A DNA stretch of 64,000 bases from Candidatus Kerfeldbacteria bacterium (GCA_043799405.1 JAZDNT010000003.1:399461-463460); one strand, 5' to 3'; positions 2,406 to 63,660 are shown, counted from the first letter of the stretch. Translations and numbers: made by a program. The notes: generated from the letters alone by a model not told the origin.

Positions 2406-5400
2406 TTAGTTCTTCCGCTTTGTTAGAATGCGCGCCACAGACACACCGACAAGAAGGTAGAGCAGTGCCAGGCCGAACGTTGTGGCGGCCACGTATTGTC
2501 CGATGATGAACATTTTTTGCGGCCTGTACTCAATGATGATCTCGATGTCCTTCGGTTTCGAACCGGCCCGATAGAACCAGATATTCGAGAAACCGTTGAT
2601 CGCCTGGTGGCCGCCTATTTCCTTTAAGTTGTTGGTTTCCCACGCGCTGCCCGACGGCAAGACATCGTTTTGAACGGTCACGGCATTAGCTGCGACGGCG
2701 CCCGAATCTTGCTGCGTAGCATTGTTCGGTGGGATAACTTTTTCTGATGCTACGTATGCCTTCCAGTTAACATTATAATTCTCGGTGAACACTACGGGAA
2801 TGTTACCGCTGGCCGACTTCAGCACCACACGGTACTTCGTCGGGGATATCTTGCGGTATTCCACCCGCGAGACCTCGTAAGCGGCCGGACTCCGTTCTTT
2901 CACGAACGAAATCGTTTCCGGCAGATTGACCTGCCGCAGTTCAAAATTATCGAAATTATTTACCGATGCATGGCTGCTTCCGGGAACGGAGAAGTAGATC
3001 AGCGCCCTATTGGACTCACCCTGTTCGTACACGAATTCCTCGTGATGCCATTTGGTATTGCCGGTAACCGCGCTGATGCCGTGACAGTAATCCTCCTCGG
3101 TCAACTTGAGGCAGACCGTTGGTTGTTCGCCAGATACATGCTGCACGTCATAGGAAAATACGTACTTCTGATGGGGTTGAAGATTGCCCACCACCTTCGT
3201 CTGGCACACGCCTCGCTGCGTGTTGTGGAACTGAAGGATGTGTTTGCGCGTCGCCGAGCTATTGACCGAGTAGTCGGATACTTCCGACGTACAGTTGTAC
3301 GTGGGTTCTGGCCAACCACCAGTCTCGAACGACGAGTCGACGACTAAATTTTGGATATTGATGGCGTCGGATAACTGTAATGTATATTTCCCCTGACGGA
3401 GAAAGATCGTATCGGCATAGAGGGGATTGTTCTGCTGGAGTTGACGTTCGCTGGCATCTTGTTTCTCCAGCAACACCGTCTTCTTGTCCACATCCACGCT
3501 TTTCACGGTAAACACCACCCCGGGCGACGTGGTATCCCGACGCTTCTGATAGTATACGATCTGATACTTACCGTCCTCGGGTATGTTCAATTTGGTGATA
3601 ATTTGATGGTTGTTATGGAAAACATCCAGCGGTGAATCTTCGGAAAACTCAAGAGGGACGACCAATGTATTGGCGTTATATGTGCGTGCAGTGTTCACCA
3701 GGTACGCCGACCTATAGTTTTTGTTCAGAATGATGCCATCCAACACATTTCTTTCATTCCCGGCTATCCATGTTAATTGTTCGGGCACGTAAATGTGCGG
3801 CAGGTATTGTTCGTTTGACAATTGATAAATATCAAAATAATCGTTAGTTTGGGTCTTTGCCGTATCACGTAAATTCTTTAACCACGTATTGTAGTACTCC
3901 TGCGTCCAGTAACTCTCGTTCCTGAACGAGTTTTTATCATCGTACGATGGAATAGCTGAAGAGAAATCCCGTTTCAAATTGATGATGTCGCGAACATTGG
4001 ATAAACCGAGGTATCTTTCAGTGCAATTTTTTATCTGTTGGCAATAGCCAAATTGCACCACGTCAGTTAACAACGGCGATTGATCAGGGGATGAACCGAT
4101 GTCTTGTTTGGTCACCAGGTTAATTAAGGGGCTCACTCCGGAATAGAGTTTTTGGTCATCATTATATTTGACATAAAAACCCAATGGCAGCCAGAGTAGA
4201 CGATAATCACCGAAGTCGTTATTATATTTTTGTGCCAGAGAACTGTAAATATTTGATAATTGATATTGATGCAATCTTGAGCGATAAACATTCAGCACAT
4301 AAGGAGAGGCATTCAATAGTACGAACAGTATCAACGTACCAAAAAATGCCCGTTGATATTTTTTTTCTTTTCGCAGGTTGACATGCAGCGCGTAGACGGC
4401 TAACGCGAAAAGCCAGACGGCACTGAAGGTGATCAGATAGTAGAAATGGTTCAGATCGCGGAACATTCCGGAAAGCGGCAATTTGTAGAACCAGTCTCCG
4501 GTCCAGCTGAAGGGCTCGGCTCTGCCTTTTGCCAATACTATACCGGCTGCGAATATCACGAATCCGATAATGAAAAATCTATTTATAACCAGGCTTATTT
4601 TTTTTCGGTAAATACCGTAGGCGAGAAAGGGAAGGCCAAAGATCACAATCTGGCAAAATGCCCAGATATTATAAAACCATTTTAAATGTATGGTTTGAAG
4701 AAAATCCTTCACTGACCAGGAAACAAAAGGCAGATAGAAAAGATCCATGATGTTGTTCTGTTGGAAGCCCTGATATGAATTTTGCAATAGCCCCTGACTA
4801 AAAGTCGAAATTCCCCGGGGATGAGGCAGATATACCAGTAGCCACGAGGCAGAAAGCAAAAAATTGACGATAATGTAAACAACGAACAATTTAATGAGGG
4901 ATTTCCAGTGACGGAAATAGAAACAGGAAAAAACAAGGAGTAATACGGCATTGATAATAAAGAATTGAATTTGACTGGCAGCTAAGCTGAATACAACTGC
5001 CCCTGCAAGCGCCACGGCAAGGGTTGGCTTTTCAAGATACCGCATAAACAGATACACCAATAACGGCGTGAAACAAAAAGACAATATGTAACTGGTATAC
5101 CCATGATGGGTGACCAGGAATAATTGAGAAGAAGTCAGGTATAATAAACCAGCCATTACCGCTAACCAGGCAGGCAAAGCGATTTTTTTTATGAGCAGAT
5201 ATACGAAAAACGCCGACAGAGAAAACATGCCGACGAGAAATAGTATTGTGATTGCATTGCTGCTTACATGGCAGTTCAATAAAAGCCAGTAAAACAATAG
5301 TACATAATAATGATTTCCAGGAGTTATTTGATTATTTATCCAGGAGGAATTTAAAGGCGCTTTGACAAAATAATCTAAGGTTTGGGGGGGCATCCAGTCG

Positions 5401-54036: not shown

Positions 54037-54846
54037 TCAATTACATTCTATTACTCGATTATTCCAAACAGCAGTGTACCAGAAGATATGGTGTTTGATG
54101 GTTACTTGATTGGCTTTTTCCCAATTACATTTTTTTCCTTCTTCGTCCGATAAAAGAAATGTATAATTTTTTCCACCATCATTAATCACGATGTTATATT
54201 GGGTATAAAAGTCCGGAAGCTTGTATTTGTAAATCGCAAGAGAACCGCTCTCCATACTGACTCCCACAATTGTACCCTTTGTTGTTATAGGGATACCTAC
54301 GGTTAACAGGAAGATGGCCGAGTATAACAAAAAGAGGGCGTAGGCAAACGCCGTCGTTATTTTAAATACTACATTCTGGTTTGCTATCCCTAACCAGTAT
54401 ATGTAATTTAGTTTTGACATTCGTTTGGAAAGGGTTTTATCTTTGAACGCAAGGAAACCAAGAGCTACTACAATATAAAAGATATTCCAAAGAGTAAACG
54501 CAGTAAAATAAAAAGCAGATCCTGTGGTTTCGATATTATGAAAATGAAATACCAGATCGTACAAGTAAAAAAGTGAAATAATAAAAAAGGAAAAGCCAAT
54601 TATGTGCCTAGCGGAAAAATTTTTTAGAGACCTGATGATAATGTTTCTAGAGTTTTTGAAAAATGCATTGATTATGGAATAAACGGCTATGATTATCAGA
54701 ATGAGTACAGTGTACGGCGCTACAGCTTTAAGGTATTCTGGTTTGGCTTGGTGCAAATTATAAATAGTGTACACGTCCAGAATGGCGAAAAGGGCCAGAA
54801 AACATATTAAAATTTTGGCTCCGGATGATAAAAATTTCATTTTCAT
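54037..54846 (-). CDS. AT-rich polytopic membrane protein with a small C-terminal soluble domain
   Basis: 269 aa with about 7 TM segments. A sampled 60-nt row (54421-54480) counted 21 G+C. Confidence 0.6.
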   Translation of the reverse strand: MKMKFLSSGAKILICFLALFAILDVYTIYNLHQAKPEYLKAVAPYTVLILIIIAVYSIINAFFKNSRNIIIRSLKNFSARHIIGFSFFIISLFYLYDLVFHFHNIETTGSAFYFTAFTLWNIFYIVVALGFLAFKDKTLSKRMSKLNYIYWLGIANQNVVFKITTAFAYALFLLYSAIFLLTVGIPITTKGTIVGVSMESGSLAIYKYKLPDFYTQYNIVINDGGKNYTFLLSDEEGKKCNWEKANQVTIKHHIFWYTAVWNNRVIECN

Positions 54847-56917: not shown

Positions 56918-57472
56918 AGGATTTCCCGAGGAGAAGAACACGACCTCTAGGTTCACGCAGAAAGTACACAATCTGCGCTGAACTCGAAACGACTAGCCCG
57001 AAGGCGAGTCGCTTCAGGTCTCCCTAGAAAGGAGGTGATCCATCGACAGCTTCCGCTACCGATGCCTTGTTACGACTTAGCCCCTATCATCGAGCCTACC
57101 TTGGTTCCCCGTACGGGGCATTTCAGGTATTCCCGACTCTCTTGGCTTGACGGGCGGTGTGTACAAAGCCCGAGAACGTATTCACCGCACCATGGCTGAT
57201 GCGCGGTTACTAGCGATTCCAGCTTCATGAGGGCGAGTTGCAGCCCTCAATCCGAACTGAGGGGTGGTTTGGTGGGATTGGCTCCGCCTTACGGCTTCGC
57301 AGCCCATTGTTACACCCCATTGTAGCACGTGTGTAGCCCAGGTCGTCAGAGGACCATGCTGACTTGACGTCATCCCTTCCTTCCTCACGCTTAAAGCGTG
57401 CAGTCTCGAGCGAATATTTTAACACTCGACAGGGGTTGCGCTCGTTAGGGGACTTAACCCAACAGCTCACGC

Positions 57473-57503
<31 letters not shown>

Positions 57504-57619
57504 TCAGCACCCTCGAAGGCTTCCCTAGTTTCCTAGGGCGTGCAGCTGAATTTCTAGACCTGGTAAGGTTCCTCGCTTAGCGTCGAATTGAACCACATGC
57601 TCCACCGCTTGTGCGGGCT

Positions 57620-57668
<49 letters not shown>

Positions 57669-57773
57669 GATGCTTATCGCGTTAGCTGACGATACTGCGA
57701 GGGTCGATACTCGCAACATCTAGCATCCATCGTTTACAGCGTGGACTACTGGGGTATCTACACGATTGTTACT

Positions 57774-57850
57774 TTCGGCGAGGAAACCTGAACGGTTTCC
57801 TCGTCCGATACCACTCCTTCCCTTTCATGGTGTCGATCCTTGCGCCTCGG
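57774..57850 (-). repeat. Module C (copy 2), at the 3' end of the 16S insertion
   Basis: TTCGGCGAGGAAACCTGAACGGTTTCCTCGTCCGATACCACTCCTTCCCT...CCTCGG matches about 46 of the first 50 positions of module D. It ends 13 nt inside the insertion. Confidence 0.8.
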
Positions 57851-58486
57851 CTAGGGTCCCGCCCTTCGGGCACCCTGATCCTCGGCGCTGCGGACTCGAC
57901 GTTCCATTTTGTCCCCTCCTCATGTGAGGAGGGGTGTCCGGTCGAATGACCGGACGGGGTGGTCGTGGTATGGACGCATCATTTCTGTGCGTCTCTGCAT
58001 GTCGCCATGCAGGTCAGACTATATCTTTCACCCGAAGGGTGACTCGGCGTATAGTCGTTGAGGGGTTTAGTGCTCATCCAGTCGTTAGAAAGGTTAGGGT
58101 GAGGGTCGATGGATTCTATAGTTTATACACGCCGCTAACCCGTAGGCGTGTCACGCCCCGCAGTTTCCAGGCACGCGTTTTCGTGTCCCGCCTTAACAGA
58201 TCACGAAGCTGTTTTTCGACCCCCACCCACTTCTAAAGACCAAAAGAGCACTAAACTTCCCTGCGGGTTGTCTGCACCGAATGATTTTTACTGTTGCCAG
58301 TACATTCGGATACTCAGAGTTTCCCGCAAATAGCCAAGTTTATTTATTCTCGCCTTGCGACGAGAGAGGACATGAGGCTTTTTCTCTCCCTTCGATCGTA
58401 CCCCTACGATCTTTCAATCAATCACATCGCGAACGTGAATTTACTTCACGTGAGCGATACAACTGAAGGGAAGGGGGAGCATCAAC

Positions 58487-58565
58487 CCAGCACCATTTCT
58501 GCCTCCGACAAAACTCACAAACGATTTCCCATCGTCGAAGTTTTCAGAAGTAGAAATGATGCTGG
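58487..58565 (-). repeat. Module B (copy 2), at the 5' end of the 16S insertion
   Basis: It has the same 13-nt start, CCAGCACCATTTC. The other arm, CGTCGAAGTTTTCAGAAGTAGAAATGATGCTGG, matches about 28/33 against module A. It begins 12 nt inside the insertion. Confidence 0.8.
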
Positions 58566-59291
58566 GAGAATTGCTTTATCCCATTCGCTCCCCACGCTTT
58601 CGTTCGTTGAGTGTCAGGATCGTTCCAGCACACTGCCTTCGCTATTGGTGTTCTTGCCGATATTAACGCATTTTACCGCTACACCGGCAATTCCGTGTGC
58701 CTCTCCCGTCCTCGAGTTCCGTCGTATCACCTGCGGCCTCACGGTTGAGCCGTGAGATTTAACAGGAGACGTGCGGAACCACCGTTGAACGCTTTACGCC
58801 CAATAAATCCGGATAACGCTCGGGGCCTTCGTATTACCGCTGCTGCTGGCACGAAGTTAGCAGCCCCTTATTCCTTCGGTACACTCAGTGTTGTTCCCGA
58901 AGAAAAGCAGTTTACACCCCGAAGGGCTTCTTCCTGCACGCGGCGTCGCTCCCTCAGACTTTCGTCCATTGGGGAAGATTCTCGACTGCAGCCTCCCGTA
59001 GGAGTCTGGGCAGTGTCGCAGTCCCAGTGAGGCGGGTCGTGCTCTCACACCCGCTATCCGTCATAGCCTTGGTAGGCCATTACCCTACCAACAAGCTGAT
59101 GGACCATAGGCCCCTCCCAAGGTGGCTTGCGCCTTTACTCCCGTTCCATATGGATCGGGACATCATCCGGAATTAGCCCGTCTTTCGACGAGTTATACCG
59201 AGCCTCGGGGTAGGTTACCAATGTGTTACGCACCCGTTTGCCACTCATACCTGTATTGCTACAGATCTTCGTTCGACTTGCATGCCTAAGA

Positions 59292-59331
<40 letters not shown>

Positions 59332-59631
59332 ATAAATGACGCGTATGGGTTTGGCTCCCCATACACCGCGATTCGATTGTTGGGATGGACGAATCGCTTA
59401 AGCACCTAGAATTTGACGTTTATCCCGTGTTTGACACGGGATCTTGTGACGGACCGTCGGAGAACAGAGAGGGGAGCCGGTACCGAAAGAGCAAAAGTTA
59501 AGTCGCTCTGGACCTTTGATCTCTACCCTCGGTTCTCCGGCGATCGCGTCGTTTGCTTGCTTGTCCAGCACCGAACAGAGTTCTGGTGCTGGGTTCCTTA
59601 CCGCATTTCAGTTGTCAACGTACCGGATCGA

Positions 59632-59698
59632 TTCGGCGAGGCAACCTACGGTTTCCTCGTCCGATGCCACTCCTTCCCTCGTCGGGGTCGCTCCTCGG
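59632..59698 (-). repeat. Leader module D (copy 1 of the C/D pair)
   Basis: TTCGGCGAGGCAACCTACGGTTTCCTCGTCCGATGCCACTCCTTCCCT...CCTCGG lies about 300 nt 5' of the mature 16S start. Confidence 0.8.
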
Positions 59699-60072
59699 AT
59701 TTCCCCTGAAATGAATTCAGGGTCGTCCTCGTCCCGACGTTCTTTGAGGTACAACGTTCACAGCACTCGGATATCCACTCATCTGAACGGATACAGACTG
59801 ATGTGAACGGTTTGGGGCGAGGCGACGAATTCATTTCGCGCCGAGCCTTGAGGTGCGACGTCCGAAGCCCGTCGGACGGAGTTGCTCTTTCGGAAGAAAA
59901 AACAGTGAGTGCCGATGGTACAGCAATCCCTGTTTTTCCTCCTTACGGCCCCTTGTTACAAAGAGTGTAAGGTTATCGATTTAATGTGCGTGTGTGTTGC
60001 CGAATGTATCGTCTCCTTTTAACGGTCTTATCCTCGGAGGACAAGAACGACAATAGATTATCGACGTTCATG

Positions 60073-60101
60073 AGCATACTCTCTTTAAAAGTCCCTGTCA
60101 A
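60073..60101 (-). promoter_or_regulatory. Candidate sigma70-type promoter for the 16S transcription unit
   Basis: The minus strand reads TTGACA-17 nt-TATGCT. It would give a leader of roughly 730 nt. This is sequence-pattern evidence only. Confidence 0.35.
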
Positions 60102-60270
60102 GTGGATGCTGTAACAGAGCCTTACGTTAGAGATCCCTTGACAAGAGGTTACTTTTTATGTACCGTCTATAGTTTCCGGCCTATCGGGACACAGCAGGCT
60201 TGTACGTCCACCGTGCAGCCGCTCGCTGCACATTGACATCAACGGTTCTCCTTCAAAAAGGAGGCAGCTT

Positions 60271-60756
60271 ATGGTGCTCTCCCAGAGGAAGGTCTGGGAG
60301 TGGGTTCGTAGGTACGGACCACAGGAAGGCGCCGCACTGATCGGAGCACTGATCGCGGCGTACATCCTTCGACCGCTCATACTCGCGAGCGGGCTTCCGT
60401 GGAGTACGGTCGTAACAGCGTACGTCGTCACGTTCGCGGACGCGCTCACCTACTACATCTTTGCGCAGGTCCGCGAGTACCGCCGCCATCGCCGTGACGG
60501 CGTACGGAAACGCGTGGCTTTCATGCTCGCGTTCCGCGACCTCGCGGTCGAGTACGGCGTCGCGGACATCGTCGACACCGTGATCACGCGCCCGTTCTGT
60601 ATGTACTGGGCGTTTCGGATCACCAGCAACCCGGTTTTCGGCGTACCGCTCGGTATGCTCGGAGCTGGGTTGGTCTTCTACACAATGGTCATACCGGGCT
60701 ACGAGCTCCGGAAACAGCTGTTCGACCCTAGCCGTAATCCAGGGAGGGAGCGATGA
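60271..60756 (+). CDS. GC-rich cassette gene A: four-TM membrane protein
   Basis: AAGGAGG lies 7 nt upstream of the ATG. 161 aa with hydrophobic segments. It forms an ATGA overlap with gene B. Confidence 0.65.
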   Translation: MVLSQRKVWEWVRRYGPQEGAALIGALIAAYILRPLILASGLPWSTVVTAYVVTFADALTYYIFAQVREYRRHRRDGVRKRVAFMLAFRDLAVEYGVADIVDTVITRPFCMYWAFRITSNPVFGVPLGMLGAGLVFYTMVIPGYELRKQLFDPSRNPGRER

Positions 60757-61148
60757 AGATGCTGCGGAGGGACAAAACGCTCCACCTGCAGCTCGACACG
60801 GAAGATCCGGGGATCGTGCTCATGGCGATCGCACGGGTTGCCTTCGGGCTGTTCAGCTATCCGCTGACGGTCCAGCCGGGTGACCCACCGATCACAGCGC
60901 CTCCGGAACTCCCGAGCGACGTCGCGCACAGCCTTATCGTACACACCATCGAGGACCGCCTCGGATTCAACCCGTTCGCGTACGACAATCGGCAATGCAT
61001 GATCTCCGCCCAACAGCAGGCAGGCAACACGATCGTCGTCGGGCGCAGCATGTCCGACGCGATTCTCGGGATGTTCCTCACGGATCTTACCCGGATGATC
61101 GCCGAAGCGTCGGCGTCGTCCGAGAGCGCTGCTCACATGGAAGTCTGA
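60753..61148 (+). CDS. GC-rich cassette gene B: hypothetical 131-aa protein
   Basis: GGGAGGGAG Shine-Dalgarno sequence and translational coupling to gene A. No family was recognised. Confidence 0.6.
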   Translation: MKMLRRDKTLHLQLDTEDPGIVLMAIARVAFGLFSYPLTVQPGDPPITAPPELPSDVAHSLIVHTIEDRLGFNPFAYDNRQCMISAQQQAGNTIVVGRSMSDAILGMFLTDLTRMIAEASASSESAAHMEV

Positions 61149-61169
61149 ACCCACAAGGAGGCACGAGAC

Positions 61170-61334
61170 ATGAACGAGAAGGGAAGGTGCCCGGTTTGCG
61201 GCAAGTCTGATGCGCCGCTCACGGAAATGGATCGCCGCGTTGTGATCGGGGTGCACGATGACGCCGCTGTTGGAGGGACGTGCGACGGCGTTGGTGAGCT
61301 GCCGGTACAGAGCGGCGACGAGATCCCCGACTAG
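61170..61334 (+). CDS. GC-rich cassette gene C: 54-aa protein with an N-terminal CPVC knuckle
   Basis: Not in the ORF track (under 60 aa). AAGGAGG lies 8 nt upstream. The translation is MNEKGRCPVCGKSDAPLTEMDRRVVIGVHDDAAVGGTCDGVGELPVQSGDEIPD. Confidence 0.5.
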   Translation: MNEKGRCPVCGKSDAPLTEMDRRVVIGVHDDAAVGGTCDGVGELPVQSGDEIPD

Positions 61335-61344
61335 GGAGGCACGG

Positions 61345-61683
61345 ATGAGCGGCAAGAAGAAGCCCAAGAAGGCCTTCATCCGCCCGGCAGGTGGATCTTG
61401 GCAGGAAGTACCCGACCCAATCATCACATTCGCGATGGGCGACCTGCCGATCGGTGTCGGGGGCACAGAGTTCGCCGACTACGTCGCCCGAAGCATGGGG
61501 TTCACCGGCCGCTACCTCCTGGAATACCGGGAGATACAGGACGACGGCTCCATGAAGTCCATCGGAGTGATCGAGGGCGAAGTGCCATCCCGCGCACCAG
61601 GCGACCAGCTCATGGTGCTTCCAGACGGCAACGAGCTCGTCGCGACCTACGTCGCCCCACAGGAGGAGAACCCTGCACCGTAA
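61345..61683 (+). CDS. GC-rich cassette gene D: hypothetical 112-aa protein with a Lys-rich N-terminus
   Basis: GGGAGG Shine-Dalgarno sequence 6 nt upstream of ATG 61345 (MSGKKKPKKAF...). The track start at 61258 lacks a Shine-Dalgarno sequence. Confidence 0.6.
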   Translation: MSGKKKPKKAFIRPAGGSWQEVPDPIITFAMGDLPIGVGGTEFADYVARSMGFTGRYLLEYREIQDDGSMKSIGVIEGEVPSRAPGDQLMVLPDGNELVATYVAPQEENPAP

Positions 61684-61752
61684 CCAACGTGCTGTCAGCC
61701 GTCGAGCAAACGCCCGACTGGCAGACAGCAAACATTTCAGAAGGATGACGCC

Positions 61753-62193
61753 ATGAGCGACGAGAAGTTGCTTCACCGGGGACGCAGCTTCCCCGAGGTA
61801 TACGTGAGATCTGCAATCTGCATCTTCACGCTGGTTCCGGAGGTCTCGTCGGACGCATTCTACGAAGTGACCGTGCAGATTCCTCCAATCGACAATCGGG
61901 GAAGGGGCTTCACGTTCCCGGCGCTCAACGAGGCCGAGGTCTACGAGCGGGACGGGACGGGCGTCACGAGGTTCGCACTCACGCAGGCCGGGCGCTCGAA
62001 GATGCCCGGCTTCTACCAGCCGATGCTGAAGGGGGCGAGAGGCCGGATCCCCTGCCTGGCCCCTTGGTTCACGGGATGGAGGGTGACGTCGATCCGACTC
62101 GAGCCCTGCGGCGACATCCCCATGATCGAAGGTGCGCTCTACTGGGAGGAGCGTACCGACATCCCGATCAAGCCGAAGCGGCACAAGAAGTAG
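61753..62193 (+). CDS. GC-rich cassette gene E: hypothetical 146-aa protein
   Basis: GAAGGA lies upstream of the ATG. Amino-acid composition is ordinary, unlike the R/P-rich antisense ORFs. No family was recognised. Confidence 0.6.
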   Translation: MSDEKLLHRGRSFPEVYVRSAICIFTLVPEVSSDAFYEVTVQIPPIDNRGRGFTFPALNEAEVYERDGTGVTRFALTQAGRSKMPGFYQPMLKGARGRIPCLAPWFTGWRVTSIRLEPCGDIPMIEGALYWEERTDIPIKPKRHKK

Positions 62194-62328
62194 CTCGAAG
62201 TAAGGCGTGTCCCAATCGTCCGCAAACTGACGAAACGGACCGACAACCACAAGAGCCCCAACGGACTGAACATCCTGCGGGGCTCTTAGCATATGCCTCG
62301 CCAACCTCCCCCGTTGCTCCGCAACAAC

Positions 62329-62350
62329 CCCCTCCACAATTGTGGAGGGG
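62329..62350. repeat. Perfect 22-nt palindrome between convergent genes (terminator-like); related copy inside the 16S insertion
   Basis: CCCCTCCACAATTGTGGAGGGG followed by TGTCC. Compare 57913-57934, CCCCTCCTCATGTGAGGAGGGG, which is also followed by TGTCC. Confidence 0.7.
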
Positions 62351-62376
62351 TGTCCTGCAACAGCAGGACGGGGAGG

Positions 62377-63660
62377 TCAATCCAACCGCACGCTGTTAAT
62401 CTTTCGATTCTGCCTGACGCTCAAGAATGCCAGCAATATCATGGCAATGCCTATGCCAAAGAACACGCGCATGATCGGGTAGTGCTCGCCGAGCCAGCTC
62501 ACGATGAGTATCATCGGCAATCCGACGAGGTTCATGAGCGTAATGAGAGAACCGAACACGCGTCCGCGCGTGTGGCCCGGCGTCTCCTCGTGGAACGTCG
62601 TTTGCGCCGCGACGATGATCAGCACGTCGGCAAAGCCGGTAAGGAACACAAGCGCCATGATATACCAGAGCCGCACCACGTCGTGGACTACCAAGACGTC
62701 AGGATTGCCAAGGTAATTCACGAAGGGAATAAGACAGAGCGTAACGCCAGCGCCAACGATCCCGGAGATGATAAGGGTCGACTTCTTCCAGCGACGCTTC
62801 GCGATATTCCCGACGAACGCGCCGATCGCCGCGCCGAGGCCAGCCGGCAGGATCAGGAACAGCGACATCTGCTGGACATTGAACCCGAGAACGTTCGTTG
62901 CGAGCGCCGGGATGAGCGCAACGACAGACCGCTCGAACCCGAACACGAGCGAGAACTGTACGACGAGCATGAGGATGATGGGCGTGTGCCTTATGAAGCG
63001 TACGCCGTCCCTGATCTCACCCTTGAGGTTACGGAAAAATTCGATCGTCTTGATACGATGTTCGAGGTGTCCTGTCAGCCTCGGAAGTATTGCGTTCAGG
63101 GCTGCTGATACAAGGAATGCAAAAAAGAGAATTGCGTAGACCTTCGTCGGACCGAGGAGCTGTATGAGCGGACCCGCAATCGAGTAACCGATCAGGAATG
63201 CGATGTACACCGTTGAAACGAACATCGCGTTCGCGATGAACAGTTCGGTCCGCGGAACGAGCTCAGGAATCGTCGCGCTTTCTGCCGGACCAAAGAACTG
63301 GCTTATCGCGGATATGATGAAACCGAGCACAATAAGGGCGGCTGGCGAGTCTCCGCAAGCGAAGAATACCACAACGACTAGCGCCCGGAGGATGTTAGAG
63401 AGGAACAGGATCGTCTTGCGGTCGAACCGGTCCGCCATAGCGCCAGCCAACGAGGAGAACAGTATCGGCGGTACACTCACCACCGCGACGAGAACGCCGA
63501 CGAGCGTGCTGGAGTGCGAGATCTCGAAGATACGCACAGCAAGGGCGAAGTTCAGGATATGTCCGGCCGACTGGTTCAAGATCTGCGAAGACCAAAGCTT
63601 CAGGAAGTTGCCGTGGCCGAGAATGGGAAGCGCCTTCAGGACGCCTTCACGGAGTTTCAT
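62377..63660 (-). CDS. MFS transporter
   Basis: 427 aa with 12 TM segments. N-terminal NFLKLWSSQILNQSAGHILNFAL and the loop motif GAMADRFDRK (the G..aDR.gR motif between TM2 and TM3). Confidence 0.8.
   Translation of the reverse strand: MKLREGVLKALPILGHGNFLKLWSSQILNQSAGHILNFALAVRIFEISHSSTLVGVLVAVVSVPPILFSSLAGAMADRFDRKTILFLSNILRALVVVVFFACGDSPAALIVLGFIISAISQFFGPAESATIPELVPRTELFIANAMFVSTVYIAFLIGYSIAGPLIQLLGPTKVYAILFFAFLVSAALNAILPRLTGHLEHRIKTIEFFRNLKGEIRDGVRFIRHTPIILMLVVQFSLVFGFERSVVALIPALATNVLGFNVQQMSLFLILPAGLGAAIGAFVGNIAKRRWKKSTLIISGIVGAGVTLCLIPFVNYLGNPDVLVVHDVVRLWYIMALVFLTGFADVLIIVAAQTTFHEETPGHTRGRVFGSLITLMNLVGLPMILIVSWLGEHYPIMRVFFGIGIAMILLAFLSVRQNRKINSVRLD

Follow-up and report, generated by a model that had tools for sequence, protein, structure and literature searches.

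In a 64,000-nt stretch of a metagenome-assembled genome (MAG) of Candidatus Kerfeldbacteria, one of the candidate phyla radiation (CPR)/Patescibacteria (GCA_043799405.1, JAZDNT010000003.1:399461-463460; hereafter the window), a GC-rich cassette of five small genes, A to E, lies between the promoter region of the 16S rRNA gene and a gene for a major facilitator superfamily (MFS) transporter. An earlier note on this DNA had proposed that the cassette is a horizontally acquired module. We find that homologous GC-rich islands share the same slot in related genomes while single genes within them turn over, and we conclude that the cassette is probably a resident, recombination-prone accessory operon, that is, a lineage-specific, fast-turnover island at the 16S gene and not a freshly landed module. 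The proposal is thus borne out in part: gene content does turn over (the insertion of E, shuffled alleles), but the module as a whole is probably not a recent acquisition.

All five genes are on the plus strand: A (60271-60756, 161 aa), B (60753-61148, 131 aa), C (61170-61334, 54 aa), D (61345-61683, 112 aa), and E (61753-62193, 146 aa). Our open reading frame (ORF) calls match the NCBI annotation, in which A to E are V1907_04395-04415, hypothetical proteins on a 495-kb contig; the tag numbering implies that exactly five genes were called, and the A, D, and E proteins are 100% identical to V1907_04395, _04410, and _04415. The sequence features listed in the earlier note are all present. The Shine-Dalgarno (SD) sites are AAGGAGG at 60258 (A), GGGAGGGAG at 60742 (B), AAGGAGG at 61155 (C), GGGAGG at 61334 (D), and a weaker GAAGGA at 61740 (E), and the A stop and B start share ATGA (60753-56), an overlap by which the two genes are translationally coupled. 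On the left is a minus-strand 16S promoter-like site (TTGACA-17-TATGCT, 60073..60101, scoring 10/12 in a consensus scan) that diverges from the cassette; on the right is the convergent MFS_3/MFS_1 transporter gene (62377..63660, minus strand; Pfam MFS_1 5e-35, MFS_3 1.9e-22). We conclude that A to E form one operon, divergent from the 16S promoter and closing at a conserved hairpin before the convergent MFS_3 gene.

The case for a resident island comes from related loci, which were found by searches with A and D and by contig look-ups of the matches; a scan of GTDB with the MFS protein gave L075 and L076. In at least six related metagenomic genomes the slot is filled by a GC-rich island of small unannotated genes, and most of these islands are led by A, whose orthologues occupy the same slot in L001, L002, L003, L005, L123, and L124. 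In L001, L123, and L124, A is the gene next to the 5' end of the 16S gene; in L001, L005, and L124, it faces the convergent MFS gene. Homologous genes therefore lie between the same flanks in diverged relatives; C and D recur, the closing hairpin is conserved, and the neighborhood search that the earlier note had suggested shows A recurring at this slot with C, D, or B. The MFS gene is the conserved right border of the island (66–78% identical in L001, L005, L075, and L124), while A is only 34–52% identical in the distant loci, which indicates that the slot was occupied before these lineages split. Island genes have a G+C of 0.58-0.71, compared with 0.49-0.59 for flanking genes (L001, L005, and L124). 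Because GC enrichment is common to the islands of relatives, we read the high G+C as inherited with the island and not as a sign that it arrived recently.

The arrangements of these loci (genes without a letter are written as numbers or as X1 to X4) display both a common frame and a variable content. L003 and L004 have A-B-C-D, then the terminator, and L002 has A-B*, where B* is a divergent allele of B. From the 16S gene, L123 reads A-B*-104-125-D-61; L001 reads A-X1-C-X2-X3-X4-D, then MFS-CYTH; and L124 reads A-125-125-142-C-C(TM)-51-87, then MFS-methyltransferase-CYTH-HisPhos-TrmD-...-KhpA-S16. L005 reads A-132-117-64-63-135-299-93, then MFS-TrmD. The islands of relatives are thus flanked by CYTH, TrmD, and S16 genes. 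In L075, which lacks A, a gene of 108 aa and a C-type gene lie between the 16S and MFS genes. This 3.6-kb contig (CAYGGS010000093.1) is filed in a "Gammaproteobacteria" MAG; its MFS gene is of the Kerfeldbacteria type (76% identical), it shares the 16S leader motifs and has a C-type gene, and it is probably misbinned. We infer that the locus is old and resident rather than a recently landed mobile element. Its islands usually comprise A, then a coupled B, one to four C mini-proteins, and D, with other small genes coming and going.

Turnover is visible for E, which lies on a strain-specific 521-bp segment (61730..62250, plus strand). The segment is bordered by the sequence 3' of D on one side and by the terminator of the operon on the other. 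The DNA of the window aligns with that of L003 and L004 up to 61729 and resumes at 62251; in L003 a 10-bp stretch replaces the segment. The same terminator hairpin follows D at about 60 nt in L003 and L004, and in L001 D is followed by the terminator with no E-like gene between them. No homologue of E was found in any fetched related locus, and none but itself among 5.8 billion proteins. E is thus an insertion seen only in this genome.

The other genes have mosaic histories. A of the window and A of L002 are 82% identical, while B of the same pair is only 23% identical; conversely, B of L002 and L123 is 64% identical, while A of that pair is only 41% identical. The DNA similarity switches partner at a breakpoint in the conserved 3' end of A. 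For C, dS between the window and L003 is 1.9, compared with 0.37-0.52 for the neighboring genes. C-type genes have also multiplied: L005 has four domains in three ORFs, and L124 has two copies, one with a C-terminal membrane anchor. Two of them carry in-frame stops, a TAA inside the CxxC that replaces the residue after the first Cys in L001 (2440-2592) and a TAG before the His in L123 (~1775-1925, an uncalled ORF), and in both the SD site and the start codon are intact; recent pseudogene formation, sequencing error, or read-through could each explain the stops. Taken together, these comparisons indicate that single genes are swapped between lineages by recombination, that C-type genes multiply and decay, and that further small genes come and go.

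The principal alternative is that the whole cassette is a recently acquired mobile module (a prophage remnant, a toxin/immunity pair, or an anti-phage defense system) whose foreign origin is shown by its G+C. In favor of this account, the cassette is the most GC-rich 2.2-kb stretch in the window (60160-62376, 0.618, compared with 0.513 for the window), E is a demonstrable insertion, gene content varies between relatives, and C-type proteins have weak matches to the phage families phrog_9824 (5e-5, 1e-4) and phrog_5559 (0.006-0.03), whose function is unannotated. The earlier note was correct that the cassette is GC-rich, but it overstated the contrast, since the gene at 54 kb that it used as a comparator is the low extreme of the window. 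Per-gene G+C across the window ranges from 0.35 to 0.60. Measured against a heterogeneous reference of only 64 kb, the dinucleotide signature (delta*) of the cassette is at the 94th percentile and its tetranucleotide correlation at the 16th. Positions 1-50000 are mostly a patchwork of apparent surface-polysaccharide/glycosylation and membrane-protein genes in which G+C swings from 0.41 to 0.60 from gene to gene, and because of this patchwork the 64 kb are a poor baseline for normal composition. The composition and codon-usage profile that the earlier note had called for is thus divided: G+C is at the maximum of the window, but the dinucleotide signature is not extreme and codon scores trained on the host are positive. 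We conclude that the cassette is compositionally unusual but not dramatically foreign, with host-like codon usage. The strongest compositional outlier of the window lies in the opposite direction: a minus-strand ORF at 54037-54846 (269 aa; G+C 0.348; GC3 0.37; no Pfam match) is a better candidate for recent foreign DNA.

Direct tests for mobility also argue against this account. No integrase, transposase, or tyrosine recombinase was found near the island in the window or in relatives, no tRNA lies within 9 kb of the cassette, and a check for flanking direct repeats or an att site, which the earlier note had suggested, gave no meaningful ones. IMG/VR contains no relative of A, B, C, D, or E; tblastn searches of INPHARED phages were negative for A, E, and one C-type protein, as was a search of PLSDB plasmids with A; and PHROGs gave nothing for A, B, or D. 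The suggestion of a phage-derived origin consequently finds no backing in proteins of phage families or in viral contigs. The same is true of the toxin/immunity or defense type: PADLOC-DB 2.0 gave no match at E<=1 for A to E or for the antisense ORFs, and none at E<=0.1 for ten cargo proteins of relatives except a meaningless PycTM at 0.09, and searches of Pfam, NCBIfam, and PADLOC revealed neither toxin nor antitoxin domains, leaving A-B coupling as the sole pair-like feature. Given also that the slot is occupied and equally GC-rich where A is only 34–52% identical, we consider a recent mobile module unlikely. Under the reading of a resident operon, the raised G+C would reflect exchange within a shared GC-rich gene pool or recombination-associated GC-biased conversion rather than recent foreign origin. 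GC-biased conversion has been proposed for recombining bacterial genomes.

A leads the operon and encodes a basic protein (pI 10.1) that is a four-helix membrane protein; the large unnamed family to which it belongs is cellular and spans many phyla. With a profile built from three sequences, 581 cluster representatives were matched at E<1e-3, and 273 of them at E<1e-10; most are 135-190 aa long. A matches the family over its full length, charged and aromatic residues are strongly conserved, and an alignment of 50 sequences has R14, Y15, and P108 invariant and 13 further positions at least 90% conserved. The AlphaFold2 model built from these 50 sequences consists of four long helices (pLDDT 94, pTM 0.86). 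Of the motifs that mark this family of ~145-190-aa membrane proteins (RYxPxE, EFGxAExxD..RP, GKxxADxxFY, and YELRK), A has the conserved R14, Y15, E19, R89, E94, D102, R107, P108, and Y144-E145. Foldseek found no fold analogue in the PDB or among viral structures, the family has no Pfam or NCBIfam match, every source name is "hypothetical protein," and profile A1 had no match among GTDB representatives. Outside the Kerfeldbacteria lineage, family members either stand alone in unrelated contexts or are fused to other domains, and B, C, or D never comes after them. Fusions were seen in four representatives (P0013, P0120, P0142, P0056), three with Orn/DAP decarboxylases and one with a SARP-type regulator. 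In Actinomycetota such as Klenkia soli, the A-type domain, single or in tandem, is N-terminal to PLP-dependent Orn/DAP decarboxylases; in the regulator fusion the domain sits C-terminal to a SARP/NB-ARC/TPR protein. Genes of the family in 67 low-GC metagenome loci lie without B to E in housekeeping surroundings, have only clade-specific synteny (AKR, CysK, CysE, RumA, histidine kinase), and give no functional clue.

B, C, and D are acidic. B has one borderline hydrophobic helix; it is 69–71% identical in L003 and L004, divergent alleles (23–32%) follow A in L002 and L123, and the 4-nt A/B overlap is kept in the window, L002, L003, and L123. C has a CxxC..H..C zinc-ribbon pattern and an acidic C-terminal tail (..EIPD), with copies in L001, L003, L005 (4 domains), L075, L123, and L124. 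In an alignment of 11 family members, C7, C10, and H29 are invariant and the fourth ligand, a Cys, aligns in 9. D has a Lys-rich N-terminus and is 81–82% identical in L003 and L004 (P0006) and 37–38% identical in L001 and L123, with 23 invariant positions. Its AlphaFold2 model is moderate (pLDDT 66.6), and matches to an ATP-grasp fold were discarded (TM-scores ~0.27, rmsd ~10 Å). A 141-aa version of D from an alternative start at 61258, overlapping C, was rejected as having no support from an SD site, the NCBI call, or homologue alignments. E is basic and has no recognizable features. The products are therefore as the earlier note described them (a four-helix membrane protein, a CxxC knuckle, a Lys-rich N-terminus), and its failure to recognize a family was well founded: scans of A to E against Pfam, PHROGs, PADLOC, and NCBIfam gave nothing significant. 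The structure and profile searches that it had advised gave a confident model without a PDB relative for A and no credible fold match for D, and PDB sequence and profile searches with A to E gave nothing credible except a lead for C, discussed below. Exact-sequence contig look-ups of A, E, and P0001 found no record, and literature searches on Kerfeldbacteria and DUF7830 returned nothing relevant.

As to function, genes vary in presence, alleles are swapped, paralogues expand, and pseudogenes occur, a pattern from which we suggest, with low confidence, that the locus takes part in interaction or conflict (with phage or host, immunity-like) and not in housekeeping. Equally tentatively, A might provide its small, acidic, soluble partners B, C, and D with a platform at the membrane. 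The searches described above lend no direct support to a phage, toxin/immunity, or defense role, which is possible.

A lineage-specific housekeeping operon for rRNA/ribosome biogenesis or growth control, with small proteins that bind RNA or ribosomes, would account for the place beside the 16S promoter, which is conserved in every relative that reaches that far. It would also fit the strong SD sites, the purifying selection on the genes, the Lys-rich tails of D and E, and C, which as a zinc ribbon has the size of a ribosomal protein. The content of the island is not conserved, however: L075 has two genes only, without A, B, and D, E is unique, and C-type genes have in-frame stops in L001 and L123. 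In addition, A evolves much faster than the neighboring MFS gene, and the contexts of the A family elsewhere are unrelated. We therefore regard this explanation as quite unlikely.

Two further alternatives concern the non-coding elements of the cassette. The operon ends at a terminator-type hairpin, AGAGCCCC-(19 nt)-GGGGCTCT (62252..62286, plus strand; dG -18.9 kcal/mol, z = -3.6), which occurs once in the window. It is near-identical, loop included, at the end of the island in L001 (4190-4230), L003 (1750-1785), L004, L123 (3320-3357), and L124 (3550-3590); L005 has a compensated version and also a second copy inside the island (2420-2455, 4400-4435). The 19-nt loop, AACGGACTGAACATCCAGC, is kept across genomes whose neighboring proteins are only 35–50% identical, a degree of conservation that exceeds the need of a plain terminator. 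We considered and rejected a reading of this element as a small conserved ORF ("MFSPLGL"), as the conservation is confined to the hairpin part. The earlier note had placed the end of the cassette at a perfect 22-nt palindrome. The palindrome is indeed perfect (62329-62350), but the separate hairpin at 62252-62286 is more likely to be the operon terminator. The palindrome is the middle arm of a 79-nt multibranch inverted-repeat structure (62300..62378, not assigned to a strand; dG -56.1 kcal/mol, z = -7.3) directly after the MFS stop, in which three hairpins lie within an outer CCTCCCC/GGGGAGG stem; analogous CCCCTCC/GGAGGGG hairpins are present in L003, L005, and L124 but not in L001.

Upstream of A, the putative promoter of the operon is TTGACA-17-nt-TACCGT (60138..60166, plus strand). 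When the upstream regions of six related loci are aligned, the -35 element and its spacing prove to be conserved; in L001 and L124 the sequence is TTGACA-N18-TAGATT. The site was not called by the consensus scanner and its -10 box is weak; its assignment as the A-E promoter is based on this conservation and is provisional. The 5' leader of A (60167..60270, plus strand) has a conserved GTGCAGC..GCAC stem-loop of variable loop length, then the SD site; it has no Rfam match, and its fold is no better than that of shuffles. A search of Rfam at a relaxed threshold gave no match for the leader, terminator, or palindrome region.

Three short palindromic motifs (GTGTCCCAATCGTCC..AACGGAC, CCGTTCGCGGTCGC, and GCGCCCGGATnATCCGG) recur 3' of non-homologous genes in different islands: in L001 at 2593-2648, 2985-3080, and 3741-3804; in L005 at 2375-2594; in L123 at 2671-2727; in L124 at 1247-1277, 1656-1693, 2072-2104, and 2690-2732; and in the window at 62207-62221. 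The E segment ends with this copy of the GTGTCCCAATCGTCC..AACGGAC motif, and there is no other mismatch-free copy in the window. The motifs could be mRNA hairpins or cassette borders. In one further reading, the slot would be a dedicated, integrase-free site of gene capture and exchange, with single motif-bounded genes inserted and swapped in the tail of the A operon; together with the A-B-C-D core these would make an undescribed small-protein conflict system of episymbiotic CPR bacteria. We consider this reading quite unlikely.

Another alternative is an integron-like cassette array without an integrase (similar to clusters of attC sites lacking integron integrases, CALINs), in which site-specific recombination would add single motif-bounded genes to the end of the A operon. 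The recurrence of the three motifs after non-homologous genes, the motif at the end of the E segment, the copy of the terminal hairpin inside the L005 island, and the orientation of all genes on one strand, most without a promoter of their own, are consistent with such an array. Against it, there is no tyrosine recombinase near the island, in the window or in relatives; the motifs, judged by eye, do not have the attC layout (R''-L''..L'-R' with a GTTRRRY core), and Rfam found nothing; several junctions are too tight to hold a recombination site (the ATGA overlap, spacers of 10 nt and 21 nt); and the motifs could also be mRNA-stabilizing or attenuator hairpins. An array of this kind is accordingly very unlikely.

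A biosynthetic role was also considered, in the form of an amino-group carrier pathway in which C is LysW-like, A handles an amino-acid-derived substrate at the membrane, and MFS_3 exports the product. Searched against the PDB, the C-family profile matches LysW best, at its N-terminal knuckle (E=0.015), three representatives of the A family are fused to Orn/DAP decarboxylases, and MFS_3 is a constant neighbor. Like LysW/ArgW (Pfam Zn_ribbon_LysW), C, and C only, is ~50 aa long and acidic; its CPxCG knuckle is at the N-terminus, a beta-hairpin comes next, and the C-terminal tail is acidic. The match covers 24 residues, however, and is not significant; the second knuckle of C is H..C instead of the CxxC that would complete a C4 ribbon; its C-terminus is ..E[IT][PA]D, ending in D, and not EDWGE; and no ATP-grasp ligase (LysX) or enzyme of the LysZ/Y/J/K type is found in any island. 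Every testable defining feature of LysW is thus absent, and we treat the match as a lead only and the pathway as highly improbable.

Finally, two long antisense ORFs (60699-61466, 255 aa; 61219-62337, 372 aa) are the longest in the region, and the earlier note had stated that its view would fall if they were the real genes; this we consider practically impossible, since their GC1 > GC3 pattern is the mirror image of coding on the opposite strand, the codon model scores them negatively, they are 60–63% identical to L003 where the sense frames are 69–88% identical, they have no matches in Pfam, PHROGs, PADLOC, or NCBIfam, and NCBI calls the plus-strand genes. The antisense ORFs are by-products of high GC. 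For the plus-strand frames, and for these only, GC3 (0.75-0.85) exceeds GC1, which exceeds GC2. When 23 long ORFs of the window were used to train a codon model, the annotated frames of A, B, D, and E scored positively and better than the other frames; C was too short for a decision. Substitutions relative to the closest relative, L003 (82% DNA identity), are biased to the third codon position, and dN/dS is 0.21 for A, 0.30 for B, and 0.26 for D. A, B, and D are therefore under purifying selection (dN/dS 0.20-0.30), and on the strength of the frame-specific GC, codon scores, third-position bias, dN/dS, and NCBI gene calls, A to E are genuine protein-coding genes.

Several points weigh against the reading of a resident, recombination-prone operon. 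The related loci are short metagenomic contigs of 0.9-10 kb, and the spread of B and C is known from loci found via A, D, and MFS and may be wider. The mosaic L002 is a 1.4-kb short-read contig and may be chimeric, with two sequences fused during assembly at the conserved 3' end of A; L004, which comes from a data set independent of L003, has the L003 arrangement, so that the mosaic evidence from C is unaffected by this caveat. A is absent from the L075 island and is thus not strictly required at the slot. No island protein, in the cassette or in the cargo of related islands, matches a characterized family in Pfam or a defense family beyond a borderline STAS and a weak YdjM match, both in L001. 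GC-biased conversion is a conjectural element of the explanation, and the function ascribed to the cassette is likewise conjectural.

The surroundings of the cassette have some features of their own. Its neighbors in the window include genes for a CarboxypepD_reg-domain protein, a trehalase, an ABC transporter, and the MFS transporter. The 16S rRNA gene (57028..59337, minus strand; Rfam SSU_rRNA_bacteria, 1343.7 bits) is 2310 nt long, compared with a model of 1533 positions, and contains a group I intron of 431 nt (57995-58425; Rfam Intron_gpI, 62.7 bits) plus ~350 further inserted bases. No 23S gene follows it within the window, so that the 16S gene appears unlinked. Both an intron in the 16S gene and an unlinked 16S gene occur in other CPR genomes. 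Between the promoter-like site and the 5' end of the mature 16S rRNA lie ~740 nt (59338-60072, minus strand), parts of which are conserved in L002, L003, L123, L124, and L075, and the leader around the promoter-like site is conserved in the first four of these. This leader also holds a perfect 12-nt inverted repeat (59483-59494 / 59882-59893).

CPR bacteria have tiny genomes, and unannotated small proteins are thought to account for much of their biology, host attachment and phage resistance among it. The locus described here is a tractable one: its address at the 16S gene is fixed, A is a conserved anchor, and the zinc-ribbon mini-proteins and small membrane proteins that make up the cargo differ in their combination from one close relative to the next. 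If it is an interaction or defense locus, it would be a marker for strain-level diversification in Kerfeldbacteria and would offer the first functional handle on the A family, with its 581 clusters without annotation; if it is merely a sink for dispensable genes, it is a routine accessory region.

Among known systems, close parallels to C at the level of single proteins include DUF7830 and similar CPxCG mini-proteins, with which C-type proteins share their size and the CPxCG knuckle. The matches are weak (E=0.003 for the L075 copy, and a precomputed weak match in the neighborhood of P0012, all below Pfam cut-offs), and the window's own C has no match to families of this type at E<=1. At the level of the locus, integron arrays and CALINs resemble the cassette in having co-oriented, mostly promoterless small unannotated genes, recurrent palindromic motifs, and the insertion of a single gene, as for E. 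They differ in that the cassette has no IntI, its motifs share sequence and not attC structure, there is only a handful of motif copies, and some junctions leave no room for a site. Flexible genomic islands and hotspots, such as defense islands, share with it conserved borders (here the 16S leader and MFS), a content that varies between close relatives, mosaic alleles, an atypical composition, and many small hypothetical genes. Unlike these islands, the cassette has no integrase, transposase, tRNA anchor, or recognizable defense, toxin, or phage genes, and all its genes belong to one operon, which begins with a conserved gene for a membrane protein and is placed directly beside the 16S promoter of a CPR bacterium. 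We conclude that the cassette is a case of a well-known phenomenon, the hypervariable accessory island with a fixed chromosomal address, made here wholly of unannotated proteins in a CPR bacterium.

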